Source: Deltaproteobacteria bacterium HGW-Deltaproteobacteria-19
GTDB lineage: Bacteria; Desulfobacterota; Syntrophia; Syntrophales; PHBD01
Direction: 5' to 3'
Assembly (NCBI GenBank): GCA_002841865.1
Contig: PHBD01000001.1
Span: 151,001 to 215,000 of the forward strand
Length of the DNA stretch: 64,000 bases
Made by a program: the position numbers and the translations under genes. Shown here piece by piece: positions 5,941 to 27,007 of this stretch. Each line of letters opens with the position of its first letter. Positions within the stretch are counted from its first letter, which is position 1. Below the pieces are notes generated by a model. The model worked only from the letters and a program-made list of their open reading frames with translations, did no database searches and was not told where the DNA came from.

Positions 5941-6180
5941 TCAGACGTCCTTTTTCTTGGACCAAGCCTCCTGGTAGAGCCGGCCGATGGTCGTCACCAG
6001 GGCCAGGAAGAACAGCCCCAGCATGAAGTTCGGGGCCGTCCCGAGGAGGTTGTCCAGGAGGTGCCCCACGTACAGGAAGAGGAAAGAGGCGATGCCGATC
6101 ACGAACCCCCAGGCGCTCAACATGAACACGTGCCGGAGCTGGTTGTACTGTTCCACTTGCTGTTTCCTGAGCGTTGTCAT
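5941..6180 (-). CDS. AtpZ/AtpI family (ATPase gene 1-like) small membrane protein
   Basis: 79 aa, two hydrophobic helices with G-x2-LD-x2-LGT-x-P-x-F pattern (VGHLLDNLLGTAPNFMLGLFFL); AAAGGAGG RBS. Confidence 0.75.
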   Translation of the reverse strand: MTTLRKQQVEQYNQLRHVFMLSAWGFVIGIASFLFLYVGHLLDNLLGTAPNFMLGLFFLALVTTIGRLYQEAWSKKKDV

Positions 6181-18575: not shown

Positions 18576-18659
18576 AAGACTTGCGGATTGTTCTGCGTCA
18601 CAGAACAAGACCGCGGGTTTCCTGCCTGCAACATGTCAACGGAGGATGAGGAAGGCACC

Positions 18660-21299
18660 ATGAAACGATGTTTGATCGTGGATGATCAGGAGGAGAATCT
18701 CTATCTCCTGGAAACAATCCTCAAAGGAAACGGATATGAGGTCGACCGCGCCGGAAACGGTGCGGAGGCCCTGGAAAAGGCAAGGCGCCAACCGCCGGAC
18801 ATGGTCATCTCGGACATCCTGATGCCGGTCATGGACGGTTACACCTTGTGCCGGGAGTGGAAAGCGGACAATGCGCTGAAACACATCCCCTTCGTTTTTT
18901 ACACGGCTACATACACGGAAACGAAAGACGAGGAGTTTGCCCTGAGCCTAGGGGCGGACCGGTTCCTCATCAAGCCCCAGGAGCCGGACGTCCTGATCCG
19001 CATGATCAGGGAAGTGATGGATGAATCCTACTCGGCAAGGCAGGTGGCGGCAAGGCCCCTCGGCGAGGAGATGGAGATTTTCCGGCAGCACAACGAGATC
19101 CTGTTCCGGAAACTGGAAAAGAAGATGTCGGACCTGGAGGCGGCCAACCGTCAATTACAGAGCCTGGAAGAGAAGTACCGCCTGAGCTTCGCGCATGCGA
19201 CGGACGTGATCTTCATGATCGATGCCGACCTCGTCATTTCCGGGGTCTCGCCCTGTGTTGAGAGGATCCTGGGTTACAGACCGGAAGAGTTTGTCGGACA
19301 GCCGGTTTCCGGCCTCGAAGCAATCATGCCGCCGGAATCTTTCGAGCGAGCCGTGTCCGACGTAGACCTAATCCTGCGCGGCGACACCATCGAGGGGGTG
19401 ATATACCGGTTTATCGCCAAGGACGGCTGCATCAAGCATGGTGAGGTCAGCGGATCCCCCATCCGGAGCGACGGGAAAATCATCGGGATCGTCTCCATTG
19501 CCCGGGACATCACCGAGCGCCGGAGGATGGAGGAGAAACTGCAGGCGGCTTATGCGAAGAGGCAGGAACTGGAATTCATCATCGACCGCAGCCCGGCGGT
19601 TGTGTGGCTGTGGAAGGCCGAACCGGGATGGCCGGTGGAATATGTATCCGGCAACATCACCTCCTACGGCTATGTCCCCAGCGACTTCACGGGCGGCCGG
19701 ATCGCCTTTGCCTCCATCGTTCATCCCGAAGACCTTCAGAGGGTGGGCACGGAAGTGGAGCAGTATACCCGGGAAGGCCGGTCCGAGTTCACCCAGGAAT
19801 ACCGCATCTACATGAAATCCGGTGAGATGCGTTGGATCGACGACAGGACGTGGGTGCGACGTGGACCCGACGGCTCGATCACCCATTTCCAGGGAATCGC
19901 CATCGACATCACCGACCGCAAGCGGGCTGAAGAGACCATGCTGAAGAGTGAGAACCGTTTCCGCAAGCTCTTCGAACAGATGTGCAGTTGCGCGGTCATT
20001 TACGAAGCCGTGGACGATGGGGAAGACTTCGTGATCCGGGACTTCAACCGGGCGGCGGAACGGCTGGAGAAGATCGGAAGAGAGGAGGTGTTGGGCCGGA
20101 GGGTGACGGAGGTCTTCCCGGGGGTACGGGATTTCGGTCTTTTCGCGGTATTCCAGCGGGTCTGGAATACCGGCAATCCAGAGGATCACAAGATTTCCTT
20201 ATACAAGGACCACCGCATCGCGGGATGGCGGGAGAATCACGTTTTCAGGCTGCCTTCCGGGGAGATGGTCGCGCTCTATGAGGACGTGACGGCCAGGAAA
20301 CAGGCGGACGAGGCGCTGACGGTCAGCGAAAAGAAGTACCGCAACATCCTCGAAGACATGGACGATGCTTATTTCGAACTTGACCTGAAAGGAAACCTTG
20401 TCTTCTTCAACGAAGCCCTGGTCAGAAAGACCGGGTATACTCGTGAAGAGCTCACGGGCATGAACTATCGAAACTTTATAAGTCCCGAGACAAGCAGGCT
20501 GGTGTTAACGGTATTTTCGGAAATCTACAAGACAGGCCAGGCGGTTCGGCTTTTTGACTATGAAGTGGTCATGAAGGACGGGCAGGTGAGAAATTATGAA
20601 TCCTGGGCGAATCTTCTGTTCGACGAACAGGACCGTCCCGTCGGTTTTCGCGGGATGGCCCGGGACATCACCAGTCGCAAACAGGCGGAAATGAGCCTGC
20701 AGAAGTCCCTGGAGAATCTCCGGAAGGCACTGCAAACGACCATCCAGGTTCTGGTTGTGGCTGTGGAAACCCGGGATCCCTATACGGCGGGCCACCAGGT
20801 CCGGGTTGCCGACCTTGCCCGCAATATCGCCCTGGAAATGGGATTGCCTCCGGACCGGATCGAGGGCATCCGCCTGGCGGCCGTCATTCACGATATCGGG
20901 AAACTGTACGTGCCCGCCGAGATACTGACCAAACCGACCAGGTTGAGGGACATCGAGTTTGCCCTGATCCAGGAACACGCCCAAAAAGGGTATGAAATCC
21001 TGAAGGATGTCGAATCTGCGTGGCCGCTTGCCCAGATTGTCTACCAGCACCATGAGCGGATGGACGGATCGGGGTACCCGAGAAATCTGAAAGGGGACGA
21101 GATTATCCTGGAAGCCCGGATTCTGGCCGTTTCCGATGTCGTGGAATCCATGGCCTCCCATCGCCCCTACCGGCCGACTCTGGGCATTGAGGCAGCCCTC
21201 GAGGAGATTGAGAGGAATCGGGGAACCCATTACGACAAAGTCGTGGTCGACGCCTGCCTGAAACTGTTCCGCGAAAAAGGCTATCACGTGGTGTATTGA
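18660..21299 (+). CDS. Response regulator REC-PAS(x4)-HD-GYP, putative c-di-GMP phosphodiesterase
   Basis: CLIVDD...SDILMPVMDG; PAS/PAC repeats (ARDITER, AIDITDRK, ARDITSRK); RDPYTAGHQ, IHDIGK, HHERMDGSGYP. Start set at MKRCLIV (18660). Confidence 0.92.
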   Translation: MKRCLIVDDQEENLYLLETILKGNGYEVDRAGNGAEALEKARRQPPDMVISDILMPVMDGYTLCREWKADNALKHIPFVFYTATYTETKDEEFALSLGADRFLIKPQEPDVLIRMIREVMDESYSARQVAARPLGEEMEIFRQHNEILFRKLEKKMSDLEAANRQLQSLEEKYRLSFAHATDVIFMIDADLVISGVSPCVERILGYRPEEFVGQPVSGLEAIMPPESFERAVSDVDLILRGDTIEGVIYRFIAKDGCIKHGEVSGSPIRSDGKIIGIVSIARDITERRRMEEKLQAAYAKRQELEFIIDRSPAVVWLWKAEPGWPVEYVSGNITSYGYVPSDFTGGRIAFASIVHPEDLQRVGTEVEQYTREGRSEFTQEYRIYMKSGEMRWIDDRTWVRRGPDGSITHFQGIAIDITDRKRAEETMLKSENRFRKLFEQMCSCAVIYEAVDDGEDFVIRDFNRAAERLEKIGREEVLGRRVTEVFPGVRDFGLFAVFQRVWNTGNPEDHKISLYKDHRIAGWRENHVFRLPSGEMVALYEDVTARKQADEALTVSEKKYRNILEDMDDAYFELDLKGNLVFFNEALVRKTGYTREELTGMNYRNFISPETSRLVLTVFSEIYKTGQAVRLFDYEVVMKDGQVRNYESWANLLFDEQDRPVGFRGMARDITSRKQAEMSLQKSLENLRKALQTTIQVLVVAVETRDPYTAGHQVRVADLARNIALEMGLPPDRIEGIRLAAVIHDIGKLYVPAEILTKPTRLRDIEFALIQEHAQKGYEILKDVESAWPLAQIVYQHHERMDGSGYPRNLKGDEIILEARILAVSDVVESMASHRPYRPTLGIEAALEEIERNRGTHYDKVVVDACLKLFREKGYHVVY

Positions 21300-21449: not shown

Positions 21450-23252
21450 CTAATCGATGCCCTCGCACGGTCCGTCGTTGAGAAAGTCGGAGACGGTCTT
21501 GAGGTACTCTGCGAGGAGCTGTTTGCTCACGACGAAGATGTGGCCGATGTTCTTTTCGAAGGTCCGGTTCAGCCCGCCGCGGGTCATCTGGATGTTCCCC
21601 TCGGCCCGCATCCCCCATAACTGGCTGGCTACGCAGGAACCGGGAGGGGCGATGGGATCCCTCGAACCCCGGTAATCGAAGATCCGCACCTCGCCCCTGC
21701 GAAGGGCATCCATATCGACGGGCCGTCCGTCGAGGTCCGGATTCGTGGAAGGCATGCAGTAGGTTCCCTTAACCAGCTCGTTGCCCATGAAAAACTGTTC
21801 GATCCACTGCCGGTGGGCCTTCGCGGGAAACTTCGTTCCGTGGGTGAGCCAGTATAGGAAAGGCGCCGAATCTTCGATGGCGCGGGAATAGATTGCGCGG
21901 CCGTAGAAACCGGAGAGAACGGTGTAATGAACGCCCGGCTGAATCTCGTTCATCCCGAAATCGATGATCTGGGGCGGGATGTTGACGCTCCCGAACAGCT
22001 CATTCATCAGGTTGGGATCGTAGTTCTGACGGATAAAGGACCGCATCAACTCATGCCCGCTCTCTTCGTCGTCGAACTGGACCGGCGACGCCATGAGGGC
22101 GATTTTGCAGATGTCCATTTTCTCGCCCCTTGCCATTCGCTCTTCCGCACGCCGGGCTAGATAAGGCAGCATCAGTGTACCGCCCATGCAGTATCCCATC
22201 ACGTCGATCCGGCACTTCGGGTGTCGCTTGCCGATGATCTCCAGGTACCGGTCGTGGATGGTTTTGTTGAAAAAGGCCAGTTCAAGATGCGTGTCATCGG
22301 GACCGCATTCCCCGTGATCGACCAGATAGACCGCATAGCCTTCCCGAAGCATGCCCTGTACGACCGACTTGCCTTCGGCCAGATCGAACAGCTCCGGCTT
22401 GTTGATCAGCGGGGTCGAGATGTAGAGAACCCTGCCGTTGGGCTTGATCCCCTTCGGCAGGAAATAGCGGCGGAGTCTCACGCTGTGAAGCCTGGATCCC
22501 TTGACGATTTCATAGTCGGAGCAGCCGATCCGGCCCTGCGTGGCCCGCTCCGAATATTCCTTCGGGTCGAAGGCGTTGGCCCCGTACAGGCATTCCAGGC
22601 GAAACCGGTTTTCCGCCAGGTATTCCTCGAAGGTCATGCCGTCCGTGCCGTCCGGCTTCTTTCTCATGTAGGGAAGGGCTTCTCCGTCCAGCGGCATCTC
22701 CGTGATGACGACCAGAAGGCACTTGAGCATTTCCTTCATGGCATGAAGCCGCGTCATGCCCATAGAATTATAGGAATTCTCCATCTGGCCGAATTCCTGG
22801 ACATATTCCTTCAGCATGCGGTGACCTTCCGGGGTCGTGGCGACGGATCGGGCTTTGGACCGGTCGAACTTTCCATCCTTCATGAAATACCCGCAGAGGT
22901 CGTAGAGGGACCGGGCGTAGTTCTTGTAAATCCAGCCGTTCAGGTCCCGATAGATGTCCGGTTCCTTCCCGGAACGTGCGGTGATGCGGGCGTGGACCCT
23001 GACCGGATCCGTGAAGAAGGGCTTGAAAAGGGTGTTCTGAAAACTGGCGGCAATGGCGAGGGGACCGAACAAATGATAATTTTGACTGATCGTGTCGAGA
23101 AGCTGCTGGTACTGGAAAAGCATCCGGGTCTGCATTCCTCCTCCCATGCTTTTCCAGGGGATGGCCGTTTTCAGCCCCTCCCTGTTGTCTGCCGGCGTGA
23201 TTCCCATCCGGATCAAGAGACTGGAGGGACTGATTCTGGTTTCGTCCTTCAT
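21450..23252 (-). CDS. PhaC-like polyhydroxyalkanoate synthase / alpha-beta hydrolase with long N-terminal extension
   Basis: LYISTPLINKPELFDL...KSVV..ML..G..VYLVD (class III PhaC-like), lipase box GYCMGG, RDPIAP (Asp), GHI (His); AAGGAG RBS at 23252. Confidence 0.72.
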   Translation of the reverse strand: MKDETRISPSSLLIRMGITPADNREGLKTAIPWKSMGGGMQTRMLFQYQQLLDTISQNYHLFGPLAIAASFQNTLFKPFFTDPVRVHARITARSGKEPDIYRDLNGWIYKNYARSLYDLCGYFMKDGKFDRSKARSVATTPEGHRMLKEYVQEFGQMENSYNSMGMTRLHAMKEMLKCLLVVITEMPLDGEALPYMRKKPDGTDGMTFEEYLAENRFRLECLYGANAFDPKEYSERATQGRIGCSDYEIVKGSRLHSVRLRRYFLPKGIKPNGRVLYISTPLINKPELFDLAEGKSVVQGMLREGYAVYLVDHGECGPDDTHLELAFFNKTIHDRYLEIIGKRHPKCRIDVMGYCMGGTLMLPYLARRAEERMARGEKMDICKIALMASPVQFDDEESGHELMRSFIRQNYDPNLMNELFGSVNIPPQIIDFGMNEIQPGVHYTVLSGFYGRAIYSRAIEDSAPFLYWLTHGTKFPAKAHRQWIEQFFMGNELVKGTYCMPSTNPDLDGRPVDMDALRRGEVRIFDYRGSRDPIAPPGSCVASQLWGMRAEGNIQMTRGGLNRTFEKNIGHIFVVSKQLLAEYLKTVSDFLNDGPCEGID

Positions 23253-23487
23253 GGTTGTCTTCTCCTTTTGGGATTATTCTGCTGGATGAACGTTGATTGA
23301 ATTTGTCAGATTGATCCACAGGATGCAAGAAGGGAAAATCACATTCGGGCCATAAATTGCATCTCCGTCAAAATGGCAGAACTCACACCCTTCATATGAT
23401 ATAATCCGCCAACGTTTGTTGAACCTTTCCGTTCATGATCAAATGTGGCAGCCCCATCCGGCAGGGCTCCTTCGTCTCGGAACGGCC

Positions 23488-24684
23488 ATGATTCAGATTA
23501 CAAGCTACCTGCAACGCGACATTCTTGATGATATCATCCGGCGCTGGATGTATGGAGACCCTCGTCCCGACGACAGTGAGACCATCGTGCGGCTGATCCA
23601 TTTCAACAACCTGTTTTTATGCCGTTGCCTCAGGATTCTCGCGGAGAGCATTTTCGGGAAGTCCCAGAATGACAAGATGACGTTCCGTCGCATCTCCTGC
23701 AAGGGGGGGCTGAAGGATCTGCTCATTGAAAATCCTCCCTACAGGAACGACAGAATCGATTCCCTCATTCATGAGTATCTGCGTCGGCCGGGCCATTACT
23801 ACCGGGAGACGCCCTTTCACGGTGTCCTTGTTTCCCGAATGGATGGGGAAGGACGCCATTACGCCGGGTCCTACCGGATCAAGCGGGCCAGGCGCATCGC
23901 CGAAAAGGCGGCCCGACGCATTGCGGACCATGTTTTTGCGACGATCCGGAGAAACGCCGATACGCTGGCGGAAGGGCGTGCGAGGCGTTTCGGCATTTCC
24001 AGGCACGAGCTTATCACGTCACAGGAGGAGATGAACGAGGAATTCCTGCACGCCGAAGAGGCGTTTCTCGACGACCTCAGAAATCATCGCCCGTTGGAAG
24101 GGCAGGGGGCAATCGTCATCAATGATGTTGGAGGATTGAAGATTGTCTGGGAAGATCCCTCCCTGGACCCCCTGTACGAGACACTTTCACGGGGAGGTTG
24201 CACCATCGTGGAGCGGGAGGAACATCGGGGGCGCTATAATGCGGTGAACCTGACGGTTCGTTACCGTCCTCCCCGCGAAGCGATTATTTCACCTCCCGTA
24301 GGCGGTCACGTCCTTTCCCATTTCCAGGAAAGAGGCTGGGATGCCGAATCGATCAACCATGCATTCGCCGGGTTCGTGGATTCAGGAGAAGAAAGCGTTC
24401 TTCTGGAGATCATCGTCTCGACGTTCCAGGAATTGCTGGAAAGTGAGATCGGTCGCTGCATGCATGAGGACCGGATCATGGAGCAGCGGGCGGCGCGTCC
24501 CTACCGGGGCCATCTGGCTCGAAACATCGGATATCTTCTCGAATACCTGTTTACACTGCCGGAAGCGCCGCTGCCCATCACACGGGAATTGCCGATCCGG
24601 TTATGGGACCGCTACCTTCCCGACACGTTTTTCGAGATCATGAAGGATCTCTTCAGGATTCCTTCGATCGGTCCCCTTGAATAA
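23488..24684 (+). CDS. Hypothetical protein, probable divergent RelA/SpoT-type nucleotidyltransferase
   Basis: Motifs in synthetase order: YRIKR...EKAAR, INDVGGLKIV, GRYNAVNLTV, LEIIVST, ESEIGRCMHE. Start uncertain (23416 or 23488). Family call is inference. Confidence 0.55.
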   Translation: MIQITSYLQRDILDDIIRRWMYGDPRPDDSETIVRLIHFNNLFLCRCLRILAESIFGKSQNDKMTFRRISCKGGLKDLLIENPPYRNDRIDSLIHEYLRRPGHYYRETPFHGVLVSRMDGEGRHYAGSYRIKRARRIAEKAARRIADHVFATIRRNADTLAEGRARRFGISRHELITSQEEMNEEFLHAEEAFLDDLRNHRPLEGQGAIVINDVGGLKIVWEDPSLDPLYETLSRGGCTIVEREEHRGRYNAVNLTVRYRPPREAIISPPVGGHVLSHFQERGWDAESINHAFAGFVDSGEESVLLEIIVSTFQELLESEIGRCMHEDRIMEQRAARPYRGHLARNIGYLLEYLFTLPEAPLPITRELPIRLWDRYLPDTFFEIMKDLFRIPSIGPLE

Positions 24685-25237: not shown

Positions 25238-27007
25238 TCAGGGTTGCCGTTCTTCCGGGAGTTCCTTTTCATCCATTTTTTTGACGATCAGGTCCACATA
25301 CTGCCGCCAGCCGTCGCCAAGCCTGCTCAAGGGGTCCGGCCTCCAGCGGTTTTTGGGTCGGGCGATAATGGAGGCGAGAAATGCGCATTCCTCGTCCGTC
25401 AGTTCGGAAGGATGCTTCTGGAAATAATACCTTGCCGCAGGACCGAGGCCATAGATCCCATCGCCCCATTCGATGATGTTCAGGTAGATTTCCAGGATGC
25501 GACGCTTGGACAGCTCCTGTTCGAGAGCAATCGTGATGAACAATTCCTCGAACTTTCTGCTCAGCGTCCTCTCCCTGGGAAGGTACAGATTTTTTGCCAG
25601 TTGCATGGTGATCGTGCTGGCGCCGCGGACAACCCGGCCGGCCCGGATGTTGTCCGCCGAGGCCTCGATGAACTGCTGGATGCTGAATCCCCTATGACGG
25701 AAGAAGCCACCGTCTTCCGCCGACATGACGGCTTTGATCATCGCCGGCGGGATCTCCTCATACGGAACAAAATCGGGGTTGTCCGGACCGACCCATATGG
25801 TGACGGTTTTCCCCTGTTCCGTCCGGAAACTGTGCCGGAAGGGGCCTTTCACCATGGAGATCCGGATACCCGGCCCCAGCGCGAGTACCCGGAGCCGGTC
25901 CGATTCACCCGAAAACCGGTAGGCCGTCCGGTACGGCGGGGCGGTGGCGATGGAAGCCGAAAAATTCCCTCTGAGATATCCCGTGACCTTCAGATCGGAC
26001 AGATTCGGACGAAACGACACGGGAACGGCCAAAACGGCGCGTTCGAAGGAAAAATCCGGAAACGTAGCATCCACTAGGATTACAGGCCGGCTTCCTTTCG
26101 CTGTGGCCACGGAAAATTCCATGGTTTCTCCATCCAGGGCCATCTTTCCGCGAACTTCCTCCAATCCGGCAGGGTTTCCAAGTCCTTCCATATCCAAATG
26201 GACCTTCAGGTTCCCATCCAGCCCCCTGCCGAAGAGGAGTCCCGAAGCGGTAAAGGCGAATCGACCGGGAGAGATTTCCCGGATGGCGGCTTTCCCGCCC
26301 AAGAAGAGACGATCGAAAGGCAGGACCGGTGAAGTGAACAGCAGCAAGGGCTCAAGGGAAACGGCATCCGCCTCGACCTCAGCCTGTCGCCCCTGATCCA
26401 TACGGAAGGCGATCTTCAGTTTCTCAGCTCCTCCTTGAAGGTTCAGGTTGGCGGTCCTGCTCACGGGATCATAACGGGCTTCGAGACGTTCGTAATTCCT
26501 CTTTATTGCCCCTCTGGGCGTCGAGATGTCGACGCCCAGCCCCCTGACGGAGCAAAGGATCGAGGAGGACGAAGAGAAGGTCTTTGCCCCGGCTTCTTCG
26601 TCCTTCCGGGAAGGGGAGAGCGGCAGGGGAAGGATCCATTCACCCGCAGCGGACCTCTCCAGATGGACATTCACACCGGCGGCTTCGAAGGATTTCAGGA
26701 TCCGGGAACTCAGGGATCGGTTCTTCAGATAATCCGTCAAGCGAATGCGGAAGGTCATCTGCGTTGCGTCCAGGAACGGCTTCTCCCGAAAGGAGATCCT
26801 GATCCCGGTCGCCCGGACGCCGTCCGGGAAAGCATAATCAAGATCGTCCACTTCACAGTTCAGACCGTAGTGCAAGCGCGCATGTTCCGAAAGACGAGGT
26901 TTCCAGAGCTTGACCTTATGCTGGATGATCCCGTATGCCGCAACCACGGTGAGCAGGCATAGAGAGAGGCCAATGACCGCGATGATCCTACTTCGGGTTG
27001 ATTTCAT
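25238..27007 (-). CDS. Monofunctional peptidoglycan transglycosylase (GT51) with large N-terminal AsmA-like region
   Basis: C-terminal GT51 motifs AEDGGFFRHRG, GASTITMQLAKN, RKFEE, LEIYLN.IEWG; N-terminal TM and about 350 aa beta-rich region. Confidence 0.85.
   Translation of the reverse strand: MKSTRSRIIAVIGLSLCLLTVVAAYGIIQHKVKLWKPRLSEHARLHYGLNCEVDDLDYAFPDGVRATGIRISFREKPFLDATQMTFRIRLTDYLKNRSLSSRILKSFEAAGVNVHLERSAAGEWILPLPLSPSRKDEEAGAKTFSSSSSILCSVRGLGVDISTPRGAIKRNYERLEARYDPVSRTANLNLQGGAEKLKIAFRMDQGRQAEVEADAVSLEPLLLFTSPVLPFDRLFLGGKAAIREISPGRFAFTASGLLFGRGLDGNLKVHLDMEGLGNPAGLEEVRGKMALDGETMEFSVATAKGSRPVILVDATFPDFSFERAVLAVPVSFRPNLSDLKVTGYLRGNFSASIATAPPYRTAYRFSGESDRLRVLALGPGIRISMVKGPFRHSFRTEQGKTVTIWVGPDNPDFVPYEEIPPAMIKAVMSAEDGGFFRHRGFSIQQFIEASADNIRAGRVVRGASTITMQLAKNLYLPRERTLSRKFEELFITIALEQELSKRRILEIYLNIIEWGDGIYGLGPAARYYFQKHPSELTDEECAFLASIIARPKNRWRPDPLSRLGDGWRQYVDLIVKKMDEKELPEERQP

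Follow-up and report, generated by a model that had tools for sequence, protein, structure and literature searches.

A probable divergent homologue of the small alarmone synthetases encoded by an uncultured Syntrophaceae bacterium

The RelA/SpoT homologues (RSH) are the central stress-signalling nucleotide synthetases of bacteria, and their stand-alone members are the small alarmone synthetases (SAS). Censuses of this superfamily rest on hidden Markov models (HMMs) of the synthetase (SYNTH) domain, with which 12, and later 30, SAS subfamilies were found; the only SAS that they list for Syntrophus is fpRel (PMC3153485, PMC7229694). This report concerns a 398-residue protein, carrying no name, that is encoded in a 64,000-nucleotide stretch of the genome of an uncultured Syntrophaceae bacterium (contig PHBD01000001.1, positions 151,001 to 215,000; hereafter the window). 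We give a probability of about 0.6 to the reading, drawn from sequence comparison and structural models, that it is a stand-alone, highly divergent SAS homologue acting as an ATP-dependent 3'-pyrophosphokinase on a purine nucleotide, of either guanosine or adenosine.

The described enzymes supply the reference points for such a reading. In the Staphylococcus aureus enzyme SaRelP, R78 and R112 stack on the adenine of ATP, K80, S84, K88 and R91 hold its phosphates, D107 and E174 hold Mg2+, and H190 contacts the ribose (PMC5794853). The donor-site equivalents in FaRel2 are R64, K66, S70, K74, R77, D90, G93, R95, E145 and Q147 (PMC11782079). FaRel2 is one of the toxic SAS (toxSAS), among which FaRel2, CapRel and PhRel2 are tRNA CCA pyrophosphokinases and FaRel is a (pp)pApp synthetase. 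Finally, the (p)ppApp synthetase Apk2 carries GxN where guanosine enzymes carry SxH, a site said to recognise guanosine (PMC12226406).

The open reading frame (ORF) of the window protein is intact, with 398 codons, an ATG start and coordinates that include the stop codon. An in-frame TTG lies at 23416, 72 nt 5' of this ATG; the start is placed at 23488 because every homologue begins with MI.I at the equivalent position. Since the host genome also encodes one canonical long Rel (715 aa) elsewhere, the protein would be the second, unconventional RSH of this genome. Its regions and motifs, with the evidence for each assignment, are as follows.

23488..24684, + strand: whole gene, a probable divergent SAS-like protein of RSH synthetase fold (ORF and translation, homologues, full-length AlphaFold2 (AF2) model)
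23488..23799, +: N-terminal region, residues 1-104, family-specific (conservation; modelled as helices plus one strand)
23800..23937, +: residues 105-150, beta-hairpin ending in RSH strand beta1, then the basic donor helix (alignment to 2be3 and RelP)
23800-23823, +: YRETPFHG, within the beta-hairpin region
23869-23919, +: syn1, SYRIKRARRIAEKAARR, residues 128-144, R130-x-K132-x3-R136-x3-K140-x2-R143, the putative ATP triphosphate-binding motif
23938..24099, +: insertion 1, residues 151-204, a long helical hairpin between donor helix and beta2 (predicted helices 134-167 and 179-198)
24100..24273, +: core strands beta2-beta4, residues 205-262 (HMMER alignment; pLDDT > 90)
24118-24147, +: syn2, INDVGGLKIV, residues 211-220 (D213, G216, K218), with the putative Mg-binding Asp and adenine-side Lys
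24229-24252, +: G-loop/syn3, GRYNAVNL, residues 248-255 (H246-x-G248-x-Y250-N-A252-x-N254), with the putative Tyr that stacks on the acceptor base
24274..24384, +: insertion 2, residues 263-299, three short helices between beta4 and beta5 (predicted secondary structure, conservation)
24385..24522, +: strand beta5 with syn4, then helices (alignment to 2be3, conservation)
24403-24423, +: syn4, LEIIVST, residues 306-312 (E307, I309, S311), putative catalytic/Mg Glu kept, Q>I and R>S
24439-24474, +: ESEIGRCMHEDR, residues 318-329 (E318-S-E320-x-G322-x3-H326-E327-x-R329), helices after syn4
24523..24681, +: C-terminal tail, residues 346-398, motif L-P369-I-x-L-W373-x-R-Y376-L-P378-D379 (LWDRYLPD at 24601-24624)

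The two insertions set this protein apart from its described relatives. Insertion 1 (about 55 aa) is absent from known SAS, and insertion 2 (about 37 aa) contains a near-invariant R282-G283; known RSH have about 12 residues at each of these places. In the N-terminal region D29 and K72 are invariant and R19 and K76 nearly so, while the tail keeps Y376 in 46, P369 in 45 and W373 in 37 of the 47 homologues, down to 23% identity, on which all conservation counts given here are based. Profiles of the N-terminal region (E > 0.6) and of the tail, searched against the Protein Data Bank (PDB), gave only noise and no relative.

Regarding the fold, a template-free AF2 model of the full-length protein (pLDDT 79, pTM 0.76) presents, in order, a strand ending in RxK, a long helical hairpin, the NDVGGLK strand, a helix, two strands around the Tyr loop, three short helices, the LEIIVST strand and further helices; residues 358-398 are modelled at low confidence or as disordered (pLDDT < 50). 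The top Foldseek match of this model in the PDB is Bacillus subtilis SAS1/RelQ (E 4.6e-3, prob 1.00), and all remaining matches have E > 0.5. With a second template-free model, restricted to residues 100-345 and built from a deeper alignment (pLDDT 78.8), the top 27 PDB matches are all RSH synthetase domains, five of them with E <= 1e-3 and the best ten at prob 1.00. They include RelQ (5dec, E 1.9e-4, prob 1.00), the Streptococcus pneumoniae GTP-pyrophosphokinase-family protein 2be3, RelP of two species (6fgk, 6ex0 and 6ewz), FaRel2 (8pu4), FaRel (8pu1) and Mycobacterium tuberculosis Rel (5xnx). Generic nucleotidyltransferases (NTases) such as JHP933 and Pol lambda rank below every RSH match, with E > 0.28.

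Sequence comparison leads to the same enzymes once the insertions are taken out. Neither the single sequence nor the full-length profile finds any match among PDB sequences, and a profile from which residues 151-204 and 263-299 had been removed in 39 diverse members, searched against 177,635 distinct PDB sequences, does; removal of the insertions is thus needed for detection. SAS are the only significant matches of this profile, and the next match has E ~1.

2be3_A: S. pneumoniae GTP pyrophosphokinase family, E 2.3e-7
6fgk_A: B. subtilis YwaC/RelP, E 1.2e-6
6fgj_A: S. aureus RelP, E 2.6e-5
6ewz_A: S. aureus RelP, E 8.1e-5

Each of these alignments is single and collinear, and pairs sRiKrvrRiaeKasrr with GRVKPIESIKEKMARR (the segment of 2be3 aligned to syn1 of the window protein), inDvaGikvi with LQDIAGLRVM and geYnatnlvve with SGYRSYHVVVE; that to 2be3 runs on through leii/AEIQ, placing E307 on the Glu of AEIQ. 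When the 39 insertion-free sequences were compared with Pfam, 21 matched PF04607, all below threshold (best E 6.5e-4), and no other family was matched by more than one member. By the gathering score that Pfam applies, the protein falls outside PF04607. On the combined sequence and model evidence we nevertheless regard homology to the RSH synthetase domain as established with high confidence.

The family to which the protein belongs is patchily and narrowly distributed. A collection of 5.8 billion proteins contains 802 homologues, nearly all of about 400 aa and called "hypothetical protein", mostly from metagenome-assembled genomes (MAGs) of Syntrophales/Syntrophaceae type; one of them bears a JGI COG-based name, "ppGpp synthetase/RelA/SpoT-type nucleotidyltransferase". 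In 1.84 billion representatives, searched exhaustively, only 168 clusters at 50% identity were found, which marks the family as small. It occurs in 15 of 301 genomes sampled across the phylum, single-copy and intact in all 15; within the genus of the host 6 of 7 genomes are positive, and the two other genera of the same family are negative. Its range is Syntrophales-type Thermodesulfobacteriota plus a few neighbouring lineages. The fpRel of Syntrophus aciditrophicus was considered as a prior name for the family and set aside on its description alone: it is defined as a SAS group of Firmicutes and alpha/beta-proteobacteria, conventional and recognised by the SYNTH HMM, which does not suit this family.

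Some atypical members deserve a remark of their own. A full-length member (L011) sits on a 2,378-bp contig binned into an archaeal Methanoregula MAG, and in all likelihood reflects mis-binning of sequence from a syntrophic consortium rather than an archaeal homologue. In a 439-aa protein of the representative library (P0232), the N-terminal half is of the enolase superfamily (MR_MLE) and is followed by the C-terminal third of the family; this is probably a chimeric or mis-called ORF, not a real fusion. No informative domain fusion was found among the atypical members.

The putative ATP site is preserved across the family. The spacing of the donor residues is identical to that of SaRelP and FaRel2 (+2, +6, +10 and +13 on the helix; D, +3 and +5 on the strand). 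Of the nine SaRelP residues that contact ATP or Mg2+, seven are identical in the window protein, one is changed from Arg to Lys and one from Ser to Arg, and all are conserved in 44 to 47 of the 47 homologues, which argues for selection on catalysis. The correspondences are listed with their counts.

R78 (adenine stacking, phosphates): R130, 46 of 47
K80 (phosphates): K132, 47 of 47
S84 (alpha-phosphate): R136, S>R, an invariant Arg, 47 of 47
K88 (phosphates): K140, 46 of 47
R91 (phosphates): R143, 44 of 47
D107 (Mg2+): D213, 47 of 47
R112 (adenine stacking): K218, R>K, 45 of 47 (Arg in one member)
E174 (Mg2+): E307, 45 of 47 (Asp in 2)
H190 (ribose): probably H326, from a low-confidence hhalign register, 46 of 47

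In syn1, R130, K132, K140 and R143 stand at the expected spacing with Arg136 in place of the Ser, and in syn2 the Asp and Gly are kept, G216 (47 of 47) corresponding to G93 of FaRel2, while the adenine-stacking Arg has become Lys218. On the acceptor side, the G-loop Tyr (Y250, 44 of 47) is kept and aligned to the SAS Tyr, and the guanosine-type SxH is replaced by AxN, with A252 in 34 members (Gly in 5) and N254 in 34 (His in 8). In syn4, ExQxRT becomes ExIx[ST][ST]: the Glu is kept, I309 is present in 42, and Ser or Thr takes the position of the Arg in 37. After syn4, E327 is invariant (47 of 47).

An earlier note on this DNA had described, from the letters and their translation, four motifs in RSH synthetase order in an unannotated gene divergent from a PhaC-like one. 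Both genes are real (23488-24684, +; 21450-23252, -), all four motifs occur at the places named, and each is paired with the same SAS motif by the HMMER alignments to RelP-type structures and by Foldseek. The fold that it had proposed is borne out by Foldseek, and the motif residues, among them the putative metal ligands D213 and E307, prove invariant or nearly so across the homologues. The replacements that it had listed, R>K, H>N and Q>I, are seen family-wide (K218, N254 and I309, as counted above), and this makes the altered substrate that it had suggested plausible.

For an active pyrophosphokinase, the following course would be expected. ATP-Mg2+ would occupy the conserved donor site, where R130, K132, R136, K140 and R143 would hold the triphosphate and D213 and E307 the Mg2+, with G216 and K218 lying next to the adenine. 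The G-loop Tyr250 would stack on the base of the acceptor, which would receive the beta,gamma-pyrophosphate on its 3'-OH; this acceptor would most likely be a purine nucleotide, guanosine or adenosine, and the product a (p)ppNpp-type signal nucleotide. The protein would be a chromosomal, single-copy regulatory enzyme beside the canonical long Rel of its genome, and neither a toxin of a toxin-antitoxin pair nor a part of polyhydroxyalkanoate (PHA) metabolism. A more specific proposal, which we put forward only tentatively, is that this non-toxin chromosomal enzyme of syntrophic Thermodesulfobacteriota serves a non-guanosine acceptor, either as a housekeeping (p)ppApp synthetase or as the maker of an undescribed 3'-pyrophosphorylated nucleotide, with the N-terminal region, the insertions and the WxRY tail as built-in regulators.

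Several results weigh against the active-synthetase reading and have to be set beside it. The native protein matches nothing in Pfam or NCBIfam, and PF04607 (gathering score 27 bits) is unmatched even at E <= 1; the additional N-terminal region, two insertions and C-terminal tail carried by the core account for these failures, but the window protein's own insertion-free sequence leaves PF04607 unmatched as well. The boundaries of the excised segments were taken from predicted secondary structure and chosen with the motif positions already known; homology is still accepted because a deletion cannot create likeness to real SAS sequences. When the family alignment was compared by hhalign, full length and as sub-blocks, with a 20-sequence alignment of long-RSH synthetase domains seeded with the genome's own Rel, no significant match resulted (P 0.07-0.35); the register of the best local alignments was nevertheless the expected one. 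Among 16,590 ORFs of the genome the window protein ranks only 766th with the long-RSH HMM; the two ORFs next after Rel are noise, being FliG-like and radical-SAM-like by sequence. Comparison with SAS structures gives TM-scores of only 0.25-0.37, low values that the roughly 90 inserted residues would lead one to expect. As for the chemistry, three positions that known synthetases strongly conserve carry other residues here (Q>I, R>S, H>N), so activity or chemistry may differ, and the likeness of AxN to the GxN of Apk2 is a weak guide, since motif swaps did not convert the specificity of that enzyme (PMC12226406).

The motifs, moreover, prove nothing when taken alone. The donor pattern R.K.{7}K..R followed by D..G.[RK] occurs in one of the 16,590 ORFs, namely this one, and in 0 to 4 (mean 1.6) of the residue-shuffled ORFs, and is therefore no rarer than in shuffles. 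What lifts the motifs above chance is their invariance in the 47 homologues, the collinear SAS match at E 2e-7, and the fold.

Turning to the other explanations, one is that the enzyme is restrained by its own extra parts, for example by its conserved C-terminal tail, whose W373-x-R-Y376 would act in cis as a plug of the ATP site, in the manner of the YXXY motif of ATfaRel2 or the pseudo-zinc-finger domain (pseudo-ZFD) of CapRel (PMC11782079). Such a toxSAS-like protein would fit the presence of FaRel2 and FaRel among the fold matches, the donor site and acceptor Tyr that it has in common with tRNA-modifying toxSAS (PMC11782079), the numerous conserved Arg and Lys residues outside the core (R19, K72, K76, R282, R329 and R334), the conserved aromatic motif in a tail modelled as disordered, and the RNA methyltransferase genes (a GidB-SpoU fusion) that lie just upstream in five loci. 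Yet 80 loci from species-representative genomes show no conserved bicistronic partner, which is the hallmark by which toxSAS are recognised (PMC7229694), the native protein matches nothing in PADLOC or PHROGs and has no defence-island context, and its sequence matches are housekeeping SAS of RelP/RelQ type rather than toxSAS. The tail, in addition, is modelled with a pLDDT below 50 and lends no structural support to a plug. We consider this explanation unlikely.

It is likewise improbable that the protein is a dead or repurposed member of the fold, i.e., a nucleotide or alarmone sensor or a scaffold that binds ATP or (p)ppGpp and transfers nothing. The replacements of Gln by Ile and Arg by Ser in ExQxRT, of His by Asn in YxSxH, of the adenine-stacking Arg by Lys and of the donor-helix Ser by Arg would agree with such a loss, and the sizeable insertions and added regions point to new interactions. 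However, the metal ligands, the triphosphate set and the Tyr are kept down to 23% identity, a conservation expected for catalysis and not for binding alone, and active (p)ppApp synthetases likewise deviate at syn2 to syn4 (PMC12226406).

A convergent or spurious likeness, in which the protein would be a generic NTase of the Pol-beta superfamily or an unrelated fold with chance motifs, could draw on the unmatched native sequence, the negative hhalign and long-RSH HMM results, the shuffled-ORF counts and the low TM-scores. It is very unlikely given that the leading fold matches are exclusively RSH, that the PDB-wide profile finds only SAS, collinear over four motifs, and that 21 of 39 members point to PF04607 while nothing else recurs. 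The classical Pol-beta NTase signature (an hG[GS] loop followed by a DxD/DxE metal triad) was looked for in the sequence, and none was found.

The least probable explanation of all is a functional coupling of the protein to the divergent PhaC-like gene for the control of storage-polymer metabolism, since the divergent arrangement with its shared intergenic region is kept in the three closest relatives but the adjacency is missing in 77 of the 80 loci.

This coupling had been raised in the earlier note, together with the suggestion to see whether homologues stay beside phaC, and the loci do not uphold it. (p)ppGpp influences PHA metabolism in some bacteria. The PhaC-like, FKBP and transglycosylase genes flank the homologue in 3 of 80 loci, those of its closest relatives at 79-82% identity. 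At high similarity, the PhaC-like gene is found in 4 of the 301 phylum genomes, all within the order to which the window belongs, compared with 15 for the gene under study; only 2 genomes have both, and in one of these (G116) the two genes are on different contigs. With so few adjacencies and shared genomes, the proposed link to storage-polymer control reduces to local synteny.

The immediate surroundings of the gene are the following.

21450-23252, - strand: divergent neighbour, a 600-aa PhaC-like alpha/beta-hydrolase, separated from the gene by 235 bp
23373..23404, +: sigma-70-like promoter candidate ATGGCA-16-TATGAT (overlapping TATAAT), about 85 nt 5' of the ATG, from a consensus scan

The promoter candidate is weak, as the scan gave 2 sites against 0.9 expected in shuffles. 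The PhaC-like protein scores 93.6 bits with TIGR01836 (cut-off 365) and is a distant relative of class III PhaC; this sub-threshold match covers its C-terminal half only, and the N-terminal ~240 aa are without assignment. An FKBP-type isomerase gene lies 52 nt downstream of the gene. Beyond it, 25238-27007 (-) encodes a 589-aa protein whose C-terminal part holds a peptidoglycan transglycosylase domain (PF00912, E 4e-53) and whose long N-terminal region has a faint AsmA-like match. On the other side, the 903-aa product of 18588-21299 (+) reads by eye as a receiver domain with several PAS-like repeats and, at the C-terminus, a module of HD-GYP type (HHERMDGSGYP); it is probably a c-di-GMP phosphodiesterase response regulator.

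Across the 80 loci the commonest neighbour is a convergent, downstream D-Ala-D-Ala carboxypeptidase (18 loci); other downstream genes encode a PAS-GGDEF protein (4-5) or an NTPase (3), and upstream ones a guanylate-kinase-like protein (7), a PDZ protein (6), the GidB-SpoU fusion (5), fumarase beta (5) or a NUDIX protein (4). Partners on the same strand, i.e., the PDZ protein, GidB-SpoU and fumarase beta, depend on the lineage. A universal partner or antitoxin-like gene was sought over these loci and none was found, so the context gave no functional inference.

Some arrangements recurred in this survey. In six loci (L043, L065, L066, L072, L074 and L078) the gene of a PDZ-domain protein of about 413 aa, ending at about 5997-6004, lies upstream and terminates 3 bases inside, or 4 before, the start codon of the homologue, which suggests translational coupling in that lineage only; L065, L072, L074 and L078 are among the most divergent loci kept (about 45-47% identity), and three of them are labelled Myxococcota/Myxococcales. 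In five loci of MAGs labelled Desulfobacterales (L040, L046, L047, L057 and L058) the fused GidB (RsmG)-SpoU methyltransferase is directly upstream, with a gap of -13 to +35, and in L040 a PAS-GGDEF diguanylate cyclase follows directly downstream. Cell-wall genes (S11 carboxypeptidase, SLT, YkuD and alanine racemase) recur near homologues elsewhere.

The wider meaning of these findings lies in how the superfamily is counted and in which nucleotides it may produce. Because long insertions split the domain, clear homologues escape the HMMs on which the censuses are built, and RSH diversity may be under-counted as a result; about 800 "hypothetical proteins" become annotatable as SAS-like pyrophosphokinase homologues. 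The family is also a naturally occurring variant that keeps the ATP site but has shifted signatures on the acceptor side (AxN, ExIxST), and it stands in a non-toxin context. It raises the question of whether (p)ppApp-like or other alarmones act as ordinary regulators in free-living anaerobes, and its interest would be greater if the acceptor proves not to be guanosine.

Among known systems, the housekeeping SAS of RelP/RelQ type are the nearest, giving the best sequence-profile matches (E 2e-7 to 8e-5) as well as the best fold matches, and showing the same order of beta1 with RxK, basic helix, beta2 with DxxGx[RK], G-loop Tyr and beta5 with Glu. Like them, the window protein stands alone and has no hydrolase domain. 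It differs in being about twice as long (398 aa against about 210-230 aa) through its 105-aa N-terminal region, two helical insertions and conserved C-terminal tail, in the changes S>R in the donor helix and R>K at the second of the adenine-stacking positions, in having AxN for SxH in syn3 and ExIxST for ExQxRT in syn4, and in lying below PF04607 detection.

With long RSH (Rel/RelA/SpoT, PF04607) it shares the superfamily, but it lacks the HD, TGS and ACT domains and is undetectable with the long-RSH profile. The low-confidence, collinear hhalign register on the genome's own Rel runs through R52/K54/K62, D75/R80, Y121/H125, E137/T142 and E150/G152/H156 of Rel, the last three opposite E320/G322/H326 of the window protein.

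The toxSAS have the same fold (8pu4, 8pu3 and 8pu1), the same donor spacing (R64/K66/S70/K74/R77 and D90/G93/R95) and the acceptor Tyr (PMC11782079), whereas the window protein has an Ile at the equivalent of Q147, extra domains unrelated to the pseudo-ZFD, and, in the 80 loci, no adjacent antitoxin, conserved partner or defence context. Apk2 and Tas1, the (p)ppApp-making toxin domains, are also of RSH fold, Tas1 (6ox6) being a weak match at rank 35 (E 0.54), and Apk2 resembles the family in syn3, where both have a small residue-x-Asn (AxN here, GxN in Apk2) instead of SxH (PMC12226406); syn2 and syn4, in contrast, differ from the RYT and YH of Apk2. Those two are toxin domains found at the C-termini of polymorphic or secreted toxins, beside immunity genes, while the protein described here is cytoplasmic-looking, single-copy and chromosomal, with neither toxin architecture nor an immunity gene at the loci surveyed.

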